Notes under the pieces: model-generated
Seen by the model: the letters and a program-made list of their open reading frames with translations, nothing else
Database searches by the model: none
What the model was told of the DNA's origin: nothing
Assembly: GCA_007376405.1 (NCBI GenBank)
Contig: VMGD01000009.1
Coordinates: 1-58,112 of the forward strand
Direction: 5' to 3'
From: Microgenomates group bacterium Gr01-1014_7
GTDB taxonomy: Bacteria > Patescibacteriota > Microgenomatia > Daviesbacterales > UBA10151
DNA: 58,112 nucleotides
Program-made: the position numbers and the translations under genes
Shown: positions 37,105-45,165 of the stretch, piece after piece
How positions within the stretch are numbered: the stretch's first letter is position 1
Layout of the letters: the number at the start of each line of letters is the position of its first letter

Positions 37105-37187
37105 GTCCAGGTGGCGGAACGGTTTACGCGATAGTCTCAAAAACTATTGGTCGCAAGGCCATGTGGGTTCGAATCCCACCCTGGACA
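37105..37187 (+). tRNA. tRNA-Leu (anticodon CAA), class II with long variable arm, no encoded CCA
   Basis: Acceptor GTCCAGG/CCTGGAC, anticodon stem-loop ATAGT-CTCAAAA-ACTAT, T-arm GTGGG-TTCGAAT-CCCAC, discriminator A. Confidence 0.9.
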
Positions 37188-37209
37188 CAAGTGTTATACT
37201 AAAGATTAT

Positions 37210-40287: not shown

Positions 40288-40997
40288 AAGAAAGCATAAA
40301 AGTTATAATTTTTATAATGATTATAATGATTATATTACCTCCCGCCTATGCTGCAGATTCCACCCCTTCTGCCGAGGTAAAGACAAAACTTGAGGAATTA
40401 AAAAAAGAAATTGCTTCCAAAGCAGCCAAATTAAAGCAGGAGGTTAATAAAAAACTAAAAGACAAAGCCTATATTGGCAAAATTAAAACCAAATCCCCAA
40501 CAGCCATAACTTTAGCCACCAAAAACAGCCCCAAAATAGTTAATATTAATCAGGACACTATGTTTGAAAGCCAACTGAAAAGCAAAAAATCTCCCAATCT
40601 TAAAGGTTTAATTGAAGAAGATTATCTGGCAGCCCTGGGAGATGTGGATGAAACCGGAGTACTCACTGCCAAAAAAATCATTTTACTACCCCAGCCAAAG
40701 GCTGGTCAGCCTCTGGCTGAAAAAACTTATTTATGGGGTCAAGTGGTGGCTGTTTCGGATAAACTGGTTACTATCAAGGATAGAAGTCTAAAAAGTATTG
40801 CTGTTTCCATCCCAAATTCTGCCAAAGTTAGTACCGGTGGTTTCATTATTCTGACAGGAATAACTGGCAAAAACGATTTTTTTGAAGCCGACTTTGTCCA
40901 TGTTATCCCGCAGGGCGGGATTATCAAACCCAAAAAGGTGGCCAGTCCTTCAGCTCAAGTTTCCAGTCCCTCTGCCAAACCCAAAACTACCCGCTAA
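40284..40997 (+). CDS. secreted protein, function unknown
   Basis: Signal MKESIKVIIFIMIIMIILPPAYA, whose core is encoded by a TTATAAT array. ATGA overlap with the upstream gene. Confidence 0.65.
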   Translation: MKESIKVIIFIMIIMIILPPAYAADSTPSAEVKTKLEELKKEIASKAAKLKQEVNKKLKDKAYIGKIKTKSPTAITLATKNSPKIVNINQDTMFESQLKSKKSPNLKGLIEEDYLAALGDVDETGVLTAKKIILLPQPKAGQPLAEKTYLWGQVVAVSDKLVTIKDRSLKSIAVSIPNSAKVSTGGFIILTGITGKNDFFEADFVHVIPQGGIIKPKKVASPSAQVSSPSAKPKTTR

Positions 40998-41685
40998 ATA
41001 CCTCTATCACTTCTTTTTCTGCTTCTGTTAAATCTTTAACAGTATCCACACCTCTCCAGTAATCAGTGCTTTTAAAAACCAGGAACCTGTCTGAGGGCAA
41101 TTTAGGGAAAGTTTCTATTTCATGATCTCCGACGTTTGGCAAAAGGGGTTCTATTTCTCTGGAAAAAACATATATTCCGGCATTAATCCAGTGAGGCAGA
41201 ATTGGTTTTTCCTTAAATCCCAAAATCTCATCAGCGCCGTTAAATTCCACAATTCCATAAGGGCTGCGCAGTGGCACCACCACAATAGTTGCCATAGCCT
41301 CGCTTTCTTCGTGTTTTTTAATCAAGCCTTCTATATCCAGTTTCCAAAGATTATCTCCGTTTGTAATAAGAACATTTTCCCAATCATTTGGCAGTATTTG
41401 CATTGCTTTTTTAATCCCTCCCCCACGTCCAAGGGGAGTTTCTTCAACAGAAAATAAGGCTCTAATTCCATACTTTTTCCCTGAATCAAGATGTTTTTGC
41501 AAAGCTTCTCTTTTGTAACTTGTGGCAAAAACAACTGTTTCAATACCCGCATTTTTAAGCTGATCCAGCTGGTAAGCCAAAATCGGCCTGCCGCCAACCT
41601 CCACCATTGGCTTGGGCCGGTCATTAGTATATGGTCGCAGCCTCTCCCCTTTCCCGCCTGCCAAAATTATCGCGGATTTAACCAT
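40987..41685 (-). CDS. sugar-phosphate nucleotidyltransferase (NTP_transferase family)
   Basis: AIILAGGKGERLRPYTNDRPKPMVEVGGRPIL. Confidence 0.85.
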   Translation of the reverse strand: MVKSAIILAGGKGERLRPYTNDRPKPMVEVGGRPILAYQLDQLKNAGIETVVFATSYKREALQKHLDSGKKYGIRALFSVEETPLGRGGGIKKAMQILPNDWENVLITNGDNLWKLDIEGLIKKHEESEAMATIVVVPLRSPYGIVEFNGADEILGFKEKPILPHWINAGIYVFSREIEPLLPNVGDHEIETFPKLPSDRFLVFKSTDYWRGVDTVKDLTEAEKEVIEVFSG

Positions 41686-41715
41686 GCAAATAATCTTACC
41701 ACTCTCATAGGGAAT

Positions 41716-41743
41716 TTGACAAATAGAATTTTTATGATATACT
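41716..41743 (+). promoter_or_regulatory. sigma70-like promoter with extended -10 (TTGACA-16-TGaTATACT)
   Basis: TTGACA at 41716-41721, TG at 41735-41736, TATACT at 41738-41743. Confidence 0.6.
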
Positions 41744-41749
41744 AATAAT

Positions 41750-42012
41750 TACAACTAAATATTTAAAGGCGTTTTACTGGAGTCACGATCCAGGAGCCGA
41801 GAGCCAAAATGCTCTACGGAATGATCTAAGCCGTAAAAAGATAGACAGACGATGTTGGAAAACCAAAGTCGCCACTAAGAGTCATGTATCAGAACGGTAC
41901 ACGGAAAACAGGATGGGACCGCGGGAGCGGTCTTTTTATTTTTAAAAAGACACCTCTCGTTCCTTGTTCATTAGCCTTTATGGGTTAGTGATCAGCGAAC
42001 GGGAGGTTTTTT
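41750..42012 (+). promoter_or_regulatory. T-box riboswitch-like leader, predicted tRNA-His specificity
   Basis: AGGAUGGGACCGCG (41910-41923) matches the T-box sequence at 13/14 positions. Antiterminator: AGGA/UCCU, 7-nt bulge UGGGACC, GCGGGAG/CUCUCGU. Competing 10-bp helix 41953-41962/41997-42006 plus U6 sequesters GGGAGG. Hairpin 41777-41795 displays CAC. Confidence 0.7.
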
Positions 42013-42028
42013 GTTGGAAAGGAAAGTT

Positions 42029-42841
42029 ATGAAAACAAACGATAAAAAAACAGAATATGAATTCACAATCCTCCGTCCCGGAGGAAATGATCAAATGCTT
42101 ATACAGGGGCTTGTTCCAAAAAATAAAAAACGCTTGATTAATGATGAAATGATTAAGCGTTTTCCAAATGTGGAGCAGGTTAGTTTCTATGCATTTGATC
42201 GAAAAAATAACTTTGCTACTTTGGAACTTGCCGGAGGTGAATTTTGTGGAAATGCCACCAGATCACTCGCCTACTTACTTTTAAATGGCAACAAAGGAAA
42301 AATAAAAATTAAAGTTTCTGGTACAAAAAGAGTTTTAAATGCTGGAATAAATCAAAAAAATACTGCATTTGCCCAAATGCCAATTTCTAATCTGAAATCT
42401 TTTACAAAACTCAAAAGTAATTTATTCAGAGTAGATCTAGAAGGTATTACCCAATTGGTTTTTGTACAAACTAGACAGATTAATCCTAGTAATCTCAAGC
42501 GTTATGCTCTTAAACTCCTACAACAAGAAAATCTAATTTACTCAGTTCCAGCTGCCGGGGTAATGTTCATTACCGATTGGGGTGAATATATTGAACTTAA
42601 ACCTATTGTCTGGGTTAGAGATATTGAAACACTACTTTACGAGACAGCTTGTGCTAGCGGAACAGCTGCTGTAGGAATTTGGAAAGCAACCCAAAGTAAA
42701 GCAACCTCTACACAAGTTAAAATTTTGCAACCTTCCCTCAAAATTATCACTGCTGAGATTTATAAAGATAGCGATGACTTAGTGGATGTGTATATAGATG
42801 GAGATATAGAAATCCTGGAAAAAGGAAGTGTGGGATTATGA
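42029..42841 (+). CDS. DapF-fold two-cysteine PLP-independent racemase/epimerase-like protein
   Basis: LRPGGNDQMLI, AGGEFCGNATRS (first Cys) and YETACASGTAAVG (second Cys). The alternative TTG start is 42011. Confidence 0.7.
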   Translation: MKTNDKKTEYEFTILRPGGNDQMLIQGLVPKNKKRLINDEMIKRFPNVEQVSFYAFDRKNNFATLELAGGEFCGNATRSLAYLLLNGNKGKIKIKVSGTKRVLNAGINQKNTAFAQMPISNLKSFTKLKSNLFRVDLEGITQLVFVQTRQINPSNLKRYALKLLQQENLIYSVPAAGVMFITDWGEYIELKPIVWVRDIETLLYETACASGTAAVGIWKATQSKATSTQVKILQPSLKIITAEIYKDSDDLVDVYIDGDIEILEKGSVGL

Positions 42842-43653
42842 ATGAGTTAGTTGAATTAACTTTATATAATCTTGAACAACTTGAGCAAACTGGTAGACCT
42901 TTACCAGCTAGAGAAGAACTAAAGAGTAGATTAATCGAACTTGCAGAAAGTAGATCGGTTCCTGTAGTTGTATTTAATTGCTTAAATCCTGATTGGAGAC
43001 CGGGTTCAAAACGGGATTATCCAAAAGCAGCATTCTCTTTTAATCCTGAAACTTCAATCTGCAGATATTATCAAGATTATGTAGCGATCACTTTGCTCGC
43101 ACTTCAAGACCTGGGAACTCCAAATCTAAATATTGTTATACCGGATAGTGAACTACTGGATGAAAGGGTTTTTTCTTTCGCTCAATCCAAAGAAGAAAGA
43201 ATAGATACAAGTCTAAGTGCAAAATCAGCATTATCCTCTGTTCTGACAGAATTAGATAATCCGGAGCAAGCAGTAACTCTTTGGAGTGAATATTGTGCAG
43301 GGCAATCACTCAAAACTCCCTTTGAATATACAACTGAAAACTATCGTAGGATCCAGTCGGATCCTGGACTGCAGAAAAAAGTACAAGATCAAATAAAAGA
43401 TTCCGCAAGATTTTTTGATAAAAAAGGTGTTAATTTTAAAAAAATTGATCCAAGGGTAATTTATGAACGGATTGCCTGGTATGAGGCAATGTATATGGGT
43501 GAAGGTCAGGCTCTTTTGGAATCTGGGGCTATTGTATTAAACTTTGAAGATAGTCGAATTGCCGCCTGGTTTCAACGAGGAGCAGATAGCAAATTACCAA
43601 TATTAACCCCTGTCAATGCTAATGATTTTTACGCCTGGAGAAGAAAAAGTTAA
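42838..43653 (+). CDS. hypothetical protein (271 aa), translationally coupled to the racemase-like gene
   Basis: ATGA overlap. No recognisable motif. Confidence 0.7.
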   Translation: MNELVELTLYNLEQLEQTGRPLPAREELKSRLIELAESRSVPVVVFNCLNPDWRPGSKRDYPKAAFSFNPETSICRYYQDYVAITLLALQDLGTPNLNIVIPDSELLDERVFSFAQSKEERIDTSLSAKSALSSVLTELDNPEQAVTLWSEYCAGQSLKTPFEYTTENYRRIQSDPGLQKKVQDQIKDSARFFDKKGVNFKKIDPRVIYERIAWYEAMYMGEGQALLESGAIVLNFEDSRIAAWFQRGADSKLPILTPVNANDFYAWRRKS

Positions 43654-44267: not shown

Positions 44268-45165
44268 AGCACCGCCAACACCAAAGGGGTTTAGGGATAT
44301 AAAGCCTGAACTTGCCGCAAAAAGACGTGAAACAATAAATAAAATTGCCGGCGTCTTGGAAGAATATGGTTTTATTCCAATTGAAACTCCCACCATTGAG
44401 TTTGCCGAAACACTGGAAGGAAAATATGGAGAAGAAGAAAGGCTGATTTATAAATTCACAGATCGAGGTGGCAGGAATCTTGCTTTGCGTTTTGATTTAA
44501 CAGTTCCTCTTGCCAGATATGTGGCAACTTACAATCCTCCCCTACCTTTCAGGCGTTACCAAGTAGGCCAGGTTTTTAGAGGAGAAAATCCGCAAAAAGG
44601 CAGGTGGAGAGAATTTACTCAATTTGATTTTGACAGTGTTGGATCTAGTAATCCGTCGGAGGATGCAAAAGTTGTAGCTGTTGCCATAAAGTGCATGAGG
44701 AAGCTTGGGTTCTCAAATGCTCAAATGTCTGTTAATGACAGAGCTAATTTTGCAGATTTCCCCTCGGAGATTGTTAGAGCTATAGATAAGCTTAATAAAA
44801 TTGGTGAAGAGGCAGTTTTGCAAGAGCTTGTGAGCAATGGTTTATCCCAGCAGGTAGCCAAGGAGTCTGTTTCTAAAATCAGATCACAAAAACCAACTTC
44901 AAATCTTAAAGATTTGTTTAAGATTCTAAAGGAAGAATATAAATTAGAAGAAGGCAAAGATTTTGCTTTTGATCCTAGCTTAGCAAGAGGTTTGGATTAT
45001 TACACAGGAGCTATTTTTGAACTAAAAGAGGAGAAATATCAAGGTTTATCCATTGGTGGCGGGGGCAGGTATGACAATTTAATTGGAAGTTTTGCCAAAA
45101 AAGATATTCCTGCAGTTGGATTCTCCTTTGGATTGGACAGGATGCTGGAAATCCTCTATCCTTAA
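44260..45165 (+). CDS. hisS: histidyl-tRNA synthetase catalytic core without anticodon-binding domain (HisRS/HisZ-like)
   Basis: LRFDLTVPLARY, FRRYQVGQVFRGENPQKGRWREFTQFDFD (motif 2), GGGGRYDNLIG...GFSFGLDRM (motif 3). GTG start lies 9 nt after AGGAG. The protein ends right after motif 3. Confidence 0.75.
   Translation: MIKAPPTPKGFRDIKPELAAKRRETINKIAGVLEEYGFIPIETPTIEFAETLEGKYGEEERLIYKFTDRGGRNLALRFDLTVPLARYVATYNPPLPFRRYQVGQVFRGENPQKGRWREFTQFDFDSVGSSNPSEDAKVVAVAIKCMRKLGFSNAQMSVNDRANFADFPSEIVRAIDKLNKIGEEAVLQELVSNGLSQQVAKESVSKIRSQKPTSNLKDLFKILKEEYKLEEGKDFAFDPSLARGLDYYTGAIFELKEEKYQGLSIGGGGRYDNLIGSFAKKDIPAVGFSFGLDRMLEILYP

Follow-up and report, generated by a model that had tools for sequence, protein, structure and literature searches.

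The 58,112-nt stretch of DNA analyzed here (the window) comes from Microgenomates group bacterium Gr01-1014_7, and the leader under study occupies the region 41716–42031 of its plus strand, between a divergent nucleotidyltransferase gene (40987–41685, minus strand) and the ATG at 42029 (Table 1). A first-pass annotation, made from the letters alone, had described this region as the leader of a probable T-box riboswitch sensing tRNA-His in a host resembling the candidate phyla radiation (CPR), and the CPR-like character of the host was borne out. The operon downstream comprises, in order, genes for a histidine-racemase homologue, an unknown protein, an NYN protein, histidyl-tRNA synthetase (HisRS) and an EamA transporter, followed on the same strand by L31, RF1 and PrmC, so that HisRS is the fourth gene and not, as had been annotated, the last.

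Table 1. Positions and composition of the features of the candidate T-box leader, of the first regulated gene and the HisRS gene, and loci of the sister leaders (SD, Shine-Dalgarno element).
Feature	Position or loci	Strand	Composition
Sigma-70-type promoter	41716–41743	+	TTGACA, 16-nt spacer, TG-extended TATACT; 11 of 12 positions match
Ultrashort Stem I	41768–41798	+	Base helix P0 (GGC 41768–70 with GCC 41796–98); 5-bp upper stem (CUGGA 41777–81 with UCCAG 41789–93); 7-nt loop GUCACGA 41782–88 with CAC 41784–86 at its center
Stem II hairpin	41800–41815	+	AGAG 41800–03 with CUCU 41812–15; conserved A-rich loop CCAAAAUG
Stem IIA/B pseudoknot	41816–41842	+	IIA (ACGG 41816–19 with CCGU 41831–34); F-box-like CCGUAA 41831–36; IIB (loop AUCU 41824–27 with AGAU 41839–42)
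Stem X (lineage-specific extra stem)	41850–41871	+	CGAU-G-UUGG, loop AAAA, CCAA-A-GUCG; covaries
Stem III	41872–41909	+	Hairpin 41882–41905; purine-rich flanks CCACUAAGAG (5′) and GAAAAC (3′); folded
Antiterminator	41910–41964	+	A1 (AGGA 41910–13 with UCCU 41961–64); 7-nt bulge UGGGACC 41914–20; A2 (GCGGGAG 41921–27 with CUCUCGU 41954–60); drawn and folded
T1, early intrinsic terminator	41915–41943	+	GGGACCGC 41915–22 with GCGGUCUU 41927–34; tetraloop GGGA; U tract U5AU5 41933–43; terminator scan
T2, classical T-box terminator	41953–42012	+	CCUCUCGUUCC... with ...GAACGGGAGG (41997–42006), then U6 (42007–12); includes 10-bp helix of CCUCUCGUUC (41953–62) with GAACGGGAGG
Likely SD and first regulated gene	42017–42841	+	SD GGAAAGGAAAG 42017–27; ATG 42029 to 42841, 270 aa
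HisRS gene	44272–45165	+	TIGR00442 hisS, 290.6 bits, profile 2–312 of 406; Pfam tRNA-synt_His
CGC sister leaders (12)	L008, L172, L140, L151, L130, L193, L173, L155, L128, L178, L157, L134		Bulge UGGU or UGGC; predicted A73 or G73
UGC sister leaders (2)	L169, L136		Bulge UGGA; predicted U73

The near-consensus promoter with its TG extension is present as first described, and promoter-like hexamers lie at an equal upstream distance in the alignment of homologous loci. A transcription start is predicted near 41750, and the region from there to 42031 folds with −90 kcal/mol, at z = −4.8 against shuffles. The T-box sequence noted in the leader of about 280 nt was likewise confirmed: at 41910–41923, AGGATGGGACCGCG (the same site is also written AGGAUGGGACCGCG) agrees with the consensus AGGGUGGNACCGCG at 13 of 14 positions. 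It is the sole match to AGGGTGGNACCGCG with at most one mismatch in the window, where shuffles lead one to expect 0.01, and its A-for-G variant also occurs in leaders of Bacilli and Erysipelotrichaceae, three of which pass the gathering score of the Rfam T-box model RF00230.

The 3′ strand of the antiterminator overlaps T2 at 41953–64, so that the two are mutually exclusive, as had been proposed for the A1/bulge/A2 structure and the 10-bp helix with its U6; both conformers were drawn and were found on folding. The antiterminator loop can form a stem of its own (GUCUUUUU with AAAAAGAC), and the isolated T2 hairpin has a folding energy of −33.9 kcal/mol. In addition, the local hairpin followed by U5AU5, which had been put forward as an additional early terminator, was recovered by the terminator scan (T1, −13 kcal/mol). 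In a transcript ending at 41945, T1 is the sole stable local fold (−18.4 kcal/mol). In a transcript ending at 41966, antiterminator-type folds are favored (−28 to −30 kcal/mol, versus −18.4 kcal/mol for T1 only, a value taken from the shorter transcript), and at full length T1 together with T2 (−53 kcal/mol) is favored over the antiterminator (−43 kcal/mol). These calculated energetics fit a T-box.

Homologues were gathered by DNA motifs; a search of genome contigs for related loci with the racemase-like protein found nothing. Twelve CPR genomes contain the exact 23-mer that surrounds the T-box. With the looser pattern TAAGAG-N15-45-AGGATGGNACCGCG, the set grew to 31 CPR leaders, each of which has the bulge UGGG. 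These homologues, at least 31 in number, come from Davies-, Woese-, Gottesman-, Ames- and Blackburnbacteria, Paceibacterota and other Patescibacteria. The looser pattern also retrieved about 70 leaders of Bacilli and Erysipelotrichaceae with an identical 3′ layout, namely F-box ... UAAGAG, Stem III, GAAnn, AGGAUGGNACCGCG, loop, CGUUCCU and terminator.

A covariance model built from 15 of the CPR leaders (R1) scored 173 bits over 41765–41968 and had no other match in the window. In the 33-sequence alignment, which was fitted to the model, 96.7% of the cells were paired, compared with 85.1% after shuffling, and compensatory double changes were seen at 16 pairs (115 cells). The covariation score was 0.309, versus 0.099 for shuffles, none of 500 of which reached 0.309, and at most 0.09 when the partners were slid by 1–3 columns. 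Independent MAFFT alignment with RNAalifold gave the same helices, and RNAalifold of 15 homologues recovered A2 and an A1-type helix. Five helices covary (P0, Stem I, Stem II, Stem IIA and stem X), in addition to the pseudoknot.

For Stem I, the codon hairpin of the first-pass annotation, with CAC in a 7-nt loop, is present, although it ends at 41793 and not at 41795 (41777–41793). As a minimal Stem I displaying CAC it found support in the comparison, with a covarying 5-bp stem and an invariant CAC among the 31 homologues. The triplet is preceded by U and followed by a purine, in the manner of an anticodon loop. The loop AGUCACGA is identical in 30 of the 31 His leaders, and the one of L019 ends in C, which gives AGUCACG(A/C) overall. 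Covariation was observed in P0 (for example AU/GC/UA), whose 3-bp variants are AGC/GCU, GGC/GCC, UCC/GGA and UGC/GCA, and in the upper stem (CG/GC/UA). The second specifier that had been suggested, GAGUCAUG with CAU at 41883–85, was rejected, since it lies in the variable Stem III, the sequence of which differs in every homologue.

For Stem II, compensatory changes were observed at all four pairs, and 100% of the cells were paired. Exchanges of GC and AU in Stem IIA were seen in 11 of the 33 sequences, with CGG/CCG alternating with CAG/CUG, and the F-box of the His leaders reads CCGU(U/A)A. In IIB, the IIA loop pairs with 4–6 nt just upstream of stem X, through 14 different complementary sequence pairs. 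At least three Watson-Crick pairs form in all 31 leaders and at least four in 27 of them, compared with 17% with mismatched (non-cognate) partners; this test counted Watson-Crick pairs only, in fixed segments, an earlier version that allowed G-U pairs and any register having been too noisy. Stem X carries a conserved UGU/GAG internal region, and four of its pairs change on both sides. For Stem III, the hairpin is variable and the flanks, UAAGAG and GAAnA, are conserved in the CPR leaders, in a layout that matches that of the Firmicute T-boxes.

R1 also found a second leader in L008 (6320–6560), with the loop AGUCGCGA, and a scan that fixed the Stem I frame and left the triplet free, filtered by R1, added 13 more, for a total of 14 sister leaders. 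Several of these come from the same genomes as His leaders, and the architecture of Stem I, Stem II and Stem IIA/B is the same. Among the 12 CGC leaders, five precede argH, argG, an ornithine carbamoyltransferase-like gene or a further carbamoyltransferase-like gene, where the sister downstream genes were named by eye from their translations, without family-search confirmation; the gene after the L008 Arg leader had no Pfam match. Three CGC-type leaders have the bulge UGGUACA, which ends in ACA instead of ACC. For the UGC leaders, the discriminator predicted from the bulge, U73, is the identity base of tRNA-Cys. The translations of the genes that follow them represent an ATP-grasp-like protein, an unassigned protein and a creatininase-like protein, with no cysteine function apparent, and their putative assignment to Cys follows from codon and discriminator only.

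The antiterminators of the sister leaders are ordinary and complementary, with sequences unlike those of the His class (e.g., CAGGG-UGGUACC-GCGAGA...UCUCGU-CCCUG). Many of the Arg-class leaders also have a hairpin with U6–8 just ahead of the T-box sequence. An early hairpin with a U tract thus seems to be a general habit of CPR leaders and, speculatively, could serve as a pause that lets a slow-binding tRNA dock. In the Arg-type loci L172 and L140, a small open reading frame (ORF) is conserved directly past the terminator, about 215–300 nt from the leader start (MWQIISTMQRRRRNRTLCLRLFVIVQKLR, MWQIISTVQRRWRNRALFLRLFVIVQKPH); it includes a run of Arg codons and may encode a leader peptide superimposed on the T-box.

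These comparisons exhibit the hallmark of a T-box, in that the triplet, the bulge base and the gene pathway change together between the Arg and Cys versions and the His version. They also fix the register in which the loop is read, because the sister triplets fit both bulge and pathway. The other frames of the loop (GUC for Val, UCA for Ser and ACG for Thr) were rejected, since the same register gives CGC and UGC in the sister leaders, which fit the Arg genes and the U73 bulge base, and the contexts of the His leaders are histidine-related. The CPR T-box family would accordingly be predicted to have at least three specificities, His, Arg and Cys.

For the His leaders, hisG, hisD or hisS is among the first downstream genes in 24 of the 31 loci, and in 27 of the 31 when the tRNA-His gene is included. 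Together with the switch to Arg and Cys, this gene context upholds the proposal that the T-box senses tRNA-His. A tRNA-His(GUG) gene follows T2 in about ten loci (L001, L008, L010, L011, L013, L077, L084, L097, L115 and L116), and starts 0–10 nt past T2 in L001, L008, L013 and L115. All nine complete adjacent tRNA-His genes have the GUG anticodon and G-1; eight have C73, as had been predicted from the UGGG bulge, and the ninth has U73, for which pairing with G is still possible. With these adjacent genes, both predicted contacts, CAC with GUG and UGGG with C73-CCA, could form in the relatives. In the window, the invariant UGGG at 41914–17 would pair with the 3′ CCCA (C73-C74-C75-A76) of tRNA-His.

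In about one third of the His leaders, the terminator is followed by tRNA-His(GUG) as the first "gene," too closely for a promoter to fit in between. Read-through transcripts would then supply the ligand of the T-box, in a positive feedback, and such genomes would rely on read-through, whether leaky or induced, to make an essential tRNA. The only tRNA gene of the window, and its only Rfam match at gathering scores, is tRNA-Leu(CAA) (37105–37188), which has a long variable arm. The Blackburnbacteria locus L010 likewise has a tRNA-Leu(CAA) gene (248–332), a few kb ahead of its His leader, which hints at conserved synteny.

The loop codon and UGGG are kept across the 31 leaders, and the alternative pairings are conserved in 29 of them. 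T2 is found in these 29, 35–152 nt past the T-box, with an upper stem that varies while its pairing is kept. T1 is kept in 30 of the 31 His leaders. Its 3′ strand occurs in five versions (GCGGUC, GGUCC, GGUC, GCGGUUC and, after a 26-nt insert, GGGUCC), all of which pair with the bulge sequence GGGACC and are followed by U5–8. That the structure is conserved across different registers argues that T1 has been selected. T1 was also considered as a terminator of the divergent upstream gene and was rejected in that role, as this gene is transcribed away from the region.

In L066, L115, L101 and L097, a conserved structured insert of 60–120 nt (...CGCAGCAUGAGCCGUGUACGAAUAGUACUGAAAAGGCGAAUGCUAAGAU...), closed by AUCCUCC/GGAGGAU, lies between T1 and the 3′ strand of the antiterminator, i.e., in the antiterminator loop; the L066 insert had no match in Rfam at gathering scores. 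Among the Firmicute loci L016, L017, L025, L027, L067, L072, L081 and L125, several have GGUAC(C/U) or CGCGGU before the terminator U tract. These motifs complement the T-box bulge and the 5′ strand of A2, not the 3′ strand of the antiterminator, so that bulge-sequestering terminators, as judged from these motifs, may not be unique to the CPR.

Taken together, the sequence comparisons identify 41765–42012 as a probable tRNA-His-specific T-box riboswitch that would control the downstream operon by transcription attenuation, and we place the probability of this reading at about 0.87. Several observations weigh against it. RF00230, the gathering threshold of which is 93 bits, had no match in the window at that threshold, none in 41600–42150 at E ≤ 10, where Rfam yielded chance-level matches to small RNA and microRNA models, and none at the gathering score in 17 of the His leaders. 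The first-pass annotation had made its reading depend on a covariance-model match, and since this locus formally gave none, the question had to be settled by the comparative evidence. The model did match six of eight sister leaders (35–64 bits, E = 1e-11 to 4e-4), below the gathering threshold yet well beyond what chance would give. Among the eight Firmicute loci from the motif scan, three scored 105–123 bits and five fell below 93 bits. The silence of RF00230 at the locus is therefore weak evidence and not decisive.

The alignment of RF00230 to the sister leader L172 assigned AAAGCG...GGAGCU to the base of Stem I, with 76 Stem I positions of the model replaced by 7 nt. It placed Stem II, IIA, CCGUAA as the F-box CGUUA, AGAGAG with Stem III, and the antiterminator, and it treated stem X as a 24-nt insertion. 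The window is therefore tied to the T-box family in two steps, with R1 linking it to the sister leaders and RF00230 linking these to the family, and the functional matches of codon, bulge and genes strengthen the tie.

The other adverse observations concern the RNA itself. Stem I lacks the elements of a long Stem I, namely a kink-turn (K-turn), a specifier internal loop with an S-turn and a distal tRNA-elbow platform; the G-A/A-G signature of the K-turn is inconsistent among the leaders, and transcriptional T-boxes are said to need these elements (PMC7583486). A long Stem I is also missing from the accepted ultrashort T-box class. The loop triplet is invariant in the His class, so that it is the context and the Arg and Cys paralogues that favor CAC over ACG, GUC or UCA. 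The tRNA-His match is provided by genes of the relatives, the window itself having tRNA-Leu(CAA) as its sole tRNA gene. For A1 and A2, the His class offers no compensatory evidence: the 5′ strand is invariant and the 3′ strand varies solely by C/U opposite G, with pairing kept, so that covariation within this class neither supports nor contradicts the two helices. T1 lies inside the antiterminator, ahead of its 3′ strand, and a purely classical mechanism does not easily accommodate this placement. Finally, L006 and L009 have neither the 3′ strand of the antiterminator nor T2. As these two loci retain T1, T1 fits a regulated element in its own right.

An alternative is that the conserved unit is a small RNA that stands alone (about 190 nt, roughly 41750–41943), with its own promoter and T1 as its end, acting in trans, for example by mimicking tRNA-His or serving as a sponge for it, and with T2 as a backup or unrelated. 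The promoter together with the T1 hairpin and U tract in 30 of the 31 homologues, the two loci that end at T1, and the distance from T1 to the next block, which varies from 35 to 152 nt, would all suit such an RNA. However, CCUCUCGUUCCUU, the exact complement of the 5′ strand of the T-box, is present in 29 of the 31 loci at any spacing, always with its own terminator after it. In addition, the leader is always co-oriented with and directly ahead of His genes or tRNA-His, and the Arg and Cys sisters have ordinary pairs of antiterminator and terminator. A small RNA is thus very improbable.

It is just as improbable that the leader is a purely translational T-box, like those of actinobacterial ileS, in which the helix 41953–42006 would hide GGGAGG instead of terminating transcription. 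Elsewhere, an ultrashort Stem I typifies translational T-boxes (PMC7583486), and in 7 of 28 relatives GGGAGG precedes the start codon by 7–13 nt and can serve as the SD as well. For the window, a public call of a 275-aa gene (P0002) implies a possible start at UUG 42014, 7 nt past GGGAGG. The homologues begin at the MKT... methionine, which corresponds to the ATG at 42029; this ATG is 22 nt from GGGAGG and has a separate purine-rich SD outside T2. The burial of an SD by this helix, proposed in the first-pass annotation, is therefore unlikely in the window. Moreover, U5–8 tracts are conserved after both helices, and about ten relatives have a tRNA-His gene, which has no SD, right past the helix. 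The latter finding indicates that termination is the common mechanism and that translational masking is an occasional bonus. In L066, L088, L021 and L111, a tiny ORF (e.g., AUG UUU UGA or AUG GAA AUU UUU GA) lies just past the T2 U tract and before a second SD (GAAAGGAG) that serves the real gene.

Least probable of all is a superficially T-box-like riboswitch or attenuator that responds to free histidine or a protein: it would account for the silence of the curated model and for the missing antiterminator covariation in the His class, whereas the joint change of triplet, bulge base and pathway in the Arg and Cys leaders is predicted by tRNA recognition and not by small-molecule sensing, the bulge matches C73 of the neighboring tRNA-His genes, and the leader has no leader peptide rich in His codons. 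Attenuation by such a peptide was rejected on the same ground, since the conserved core contains CAC just once and no ORF rich in His.

For the preferred reading, a transcriptional T-box for tRNA-His, the following mechanism can be proposed. Uncharged tRNA-His would bind the codon loop, with Stem II and the pseudoknot buttressing the contact as in the ileS T-boxes, and its free 3′ end would pair with UGGG. This pairing would remove the base of T1, which would otherwise sequester GGGACC and stop or pause RNA polymerase at the U tract 41933–43. C73-CCA on U41914–G41917 would strip three basal pairs from T1, or leave 3 bp in a second T1 register. The same pairing would then stabilize A1/A2, so that 41953–64 could not form T2. 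Charged tRNA-His could not dock its 3′ end, in which case T1 and T2 would form and transcription would end. Docking would thus antagonize T1 directly before it stabilizes the antiterminator against T2. The exact role of T1, as a regulated terminator, a pause site or both, is the least certain step of this scheme.

With the Firmicute T-boxes (RF00230; B. subtilis tyrS, glyQS, hisS and his-operon leaders), the CPR leader shares 13 of the 14 positions of the T-box motif, the A1/7-nt bulge/A2 antiterminator and a terminator that reuses its strand. It also shares Stem III with its flanks (UAAGAG ... GAA), Stem II, the IIA/B pseudoknot with the F-box, C as the third codon base, and control of aminoacyl-tRNA synthetase and biosynthesis genes. 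In contrast, its Stem I is about 30 nt long instead of about 100 nt and has no S-turn specifier loop, AG bulge or distal platform, a stem is added between the pseudoknot and Stem III, an earlier terminator is built from the bulge, and the host belongs to another phylum.

The actinobacterial ileS T-boxes (M. tuberculosis, M. smegmatis and N. farcinica; TBDB class II) likewise present the codon in the terminal loop of a short Stem I. In both, Stem II and the IIA/B pseudoknot presumably take over in recognition the part of the elbow contact (PMC7583486). The ileS T-boxes differ in that they are translational, acting by SD sequestration, and Ile-specific, whereas the CPR leader has two terminators and is of the His class, with Arg and Cys sisters. 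Its Stem II is a short hairpin without an obvious S-turn, and it has the extra stem. The SD sequestrator without a terminator, a feature of the ileS class, is not found here: the U tracts are conserved, and the SD of the window lies outside T2. According to a review, transcriptional T-boxes generally need a long Stem I, with fast binding through it (PMC7583486), and the combination in the CPR leader departs from that pattern.

The staphylococcal glyS T-box, which carries stem Sa as an insertion in the antiterminator/terminator domain, is likewise missed by standard tools (PMC9177973), and the 60–120-nt structured inserts of some CPR His leaders lie in the loop of the same domain. Stem Sa is appended to A2 and has not been described as a terminator, whereas T1 pairs with the bulge and has a U tract.

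Overall, the leader shows the defining features of a T-box at the level of sequence, except for a long Stem I and a score above the Rfam threshold. Reviews describe T-boxes mainly from Gram-positive bacteria (PMC7583486), and the short-Stem-I search of TBDB was run on Actinobacteria only (PMC7778990). A full-text literature search found no paper that pairs a T-box with the CPR, Patescibacteria or named CPR phyla, an absence that is no proof of novelty. A bulge-built terminator and a T-box ahead of the gene of its own ligand were not described in the literature searched. More tentatively, and with odds that fall somewhat short of even, the CPR leaders may form a class of transcriptional switches, of at least His, Arg and Cys specificity, with an ultrashort Stem I that resembles an anticodon loop and no elbow contact. 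An early hairpin with a U tract would make up for this; in the His leaders, where it is built from the bulge, the 3′ end of the tRNA would be in direct competition with the terminator, at two sequential checkpoints, T1 and then T2. Such a class would drive the tRNA-His gene in many genomes and would be one that current detection models miss.

For the operon of the window, the first gene encodes a distant homologue of histidine racemase (PDB 9cr6 "histidine racemase," E = 8e-17), with 86 bits against NCBIfam HisR/CntK, under the curated cut-off. The second gene (42838–43653, 271 aa) is translationally coupled to it by a 4-nt overlap and had no Pfam or NCBIfam match. The HisRS consists of the catalytic domain only, without the C-terminal anticodon-binding domain. 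Short HisRS forms of 295–302 aa recur in two related genomes (L066 and L068), and L003 has a full 405-aa form. The EamA gene starts 4 nt past the HisRS stop codon.

The extension of the T-box family to the CPR means that bacteria with reduced genomes still regulate their amino-acid supply by RNA, in a group about whose regulation hardly anything else is known. The stated rule that a long Stem I and an elbow contact are required for transcriptional T-boxes (PMC7583486) is challenged by this design. For structural and synthetic studies, the leader also provides a natural minimal scaffold (about 190 nt) whose codon and discriminator (His, Arg, Cys) can be exchanged, and a covariance model made from these sequences would annotate many CPR intergenic regions that are now blank.

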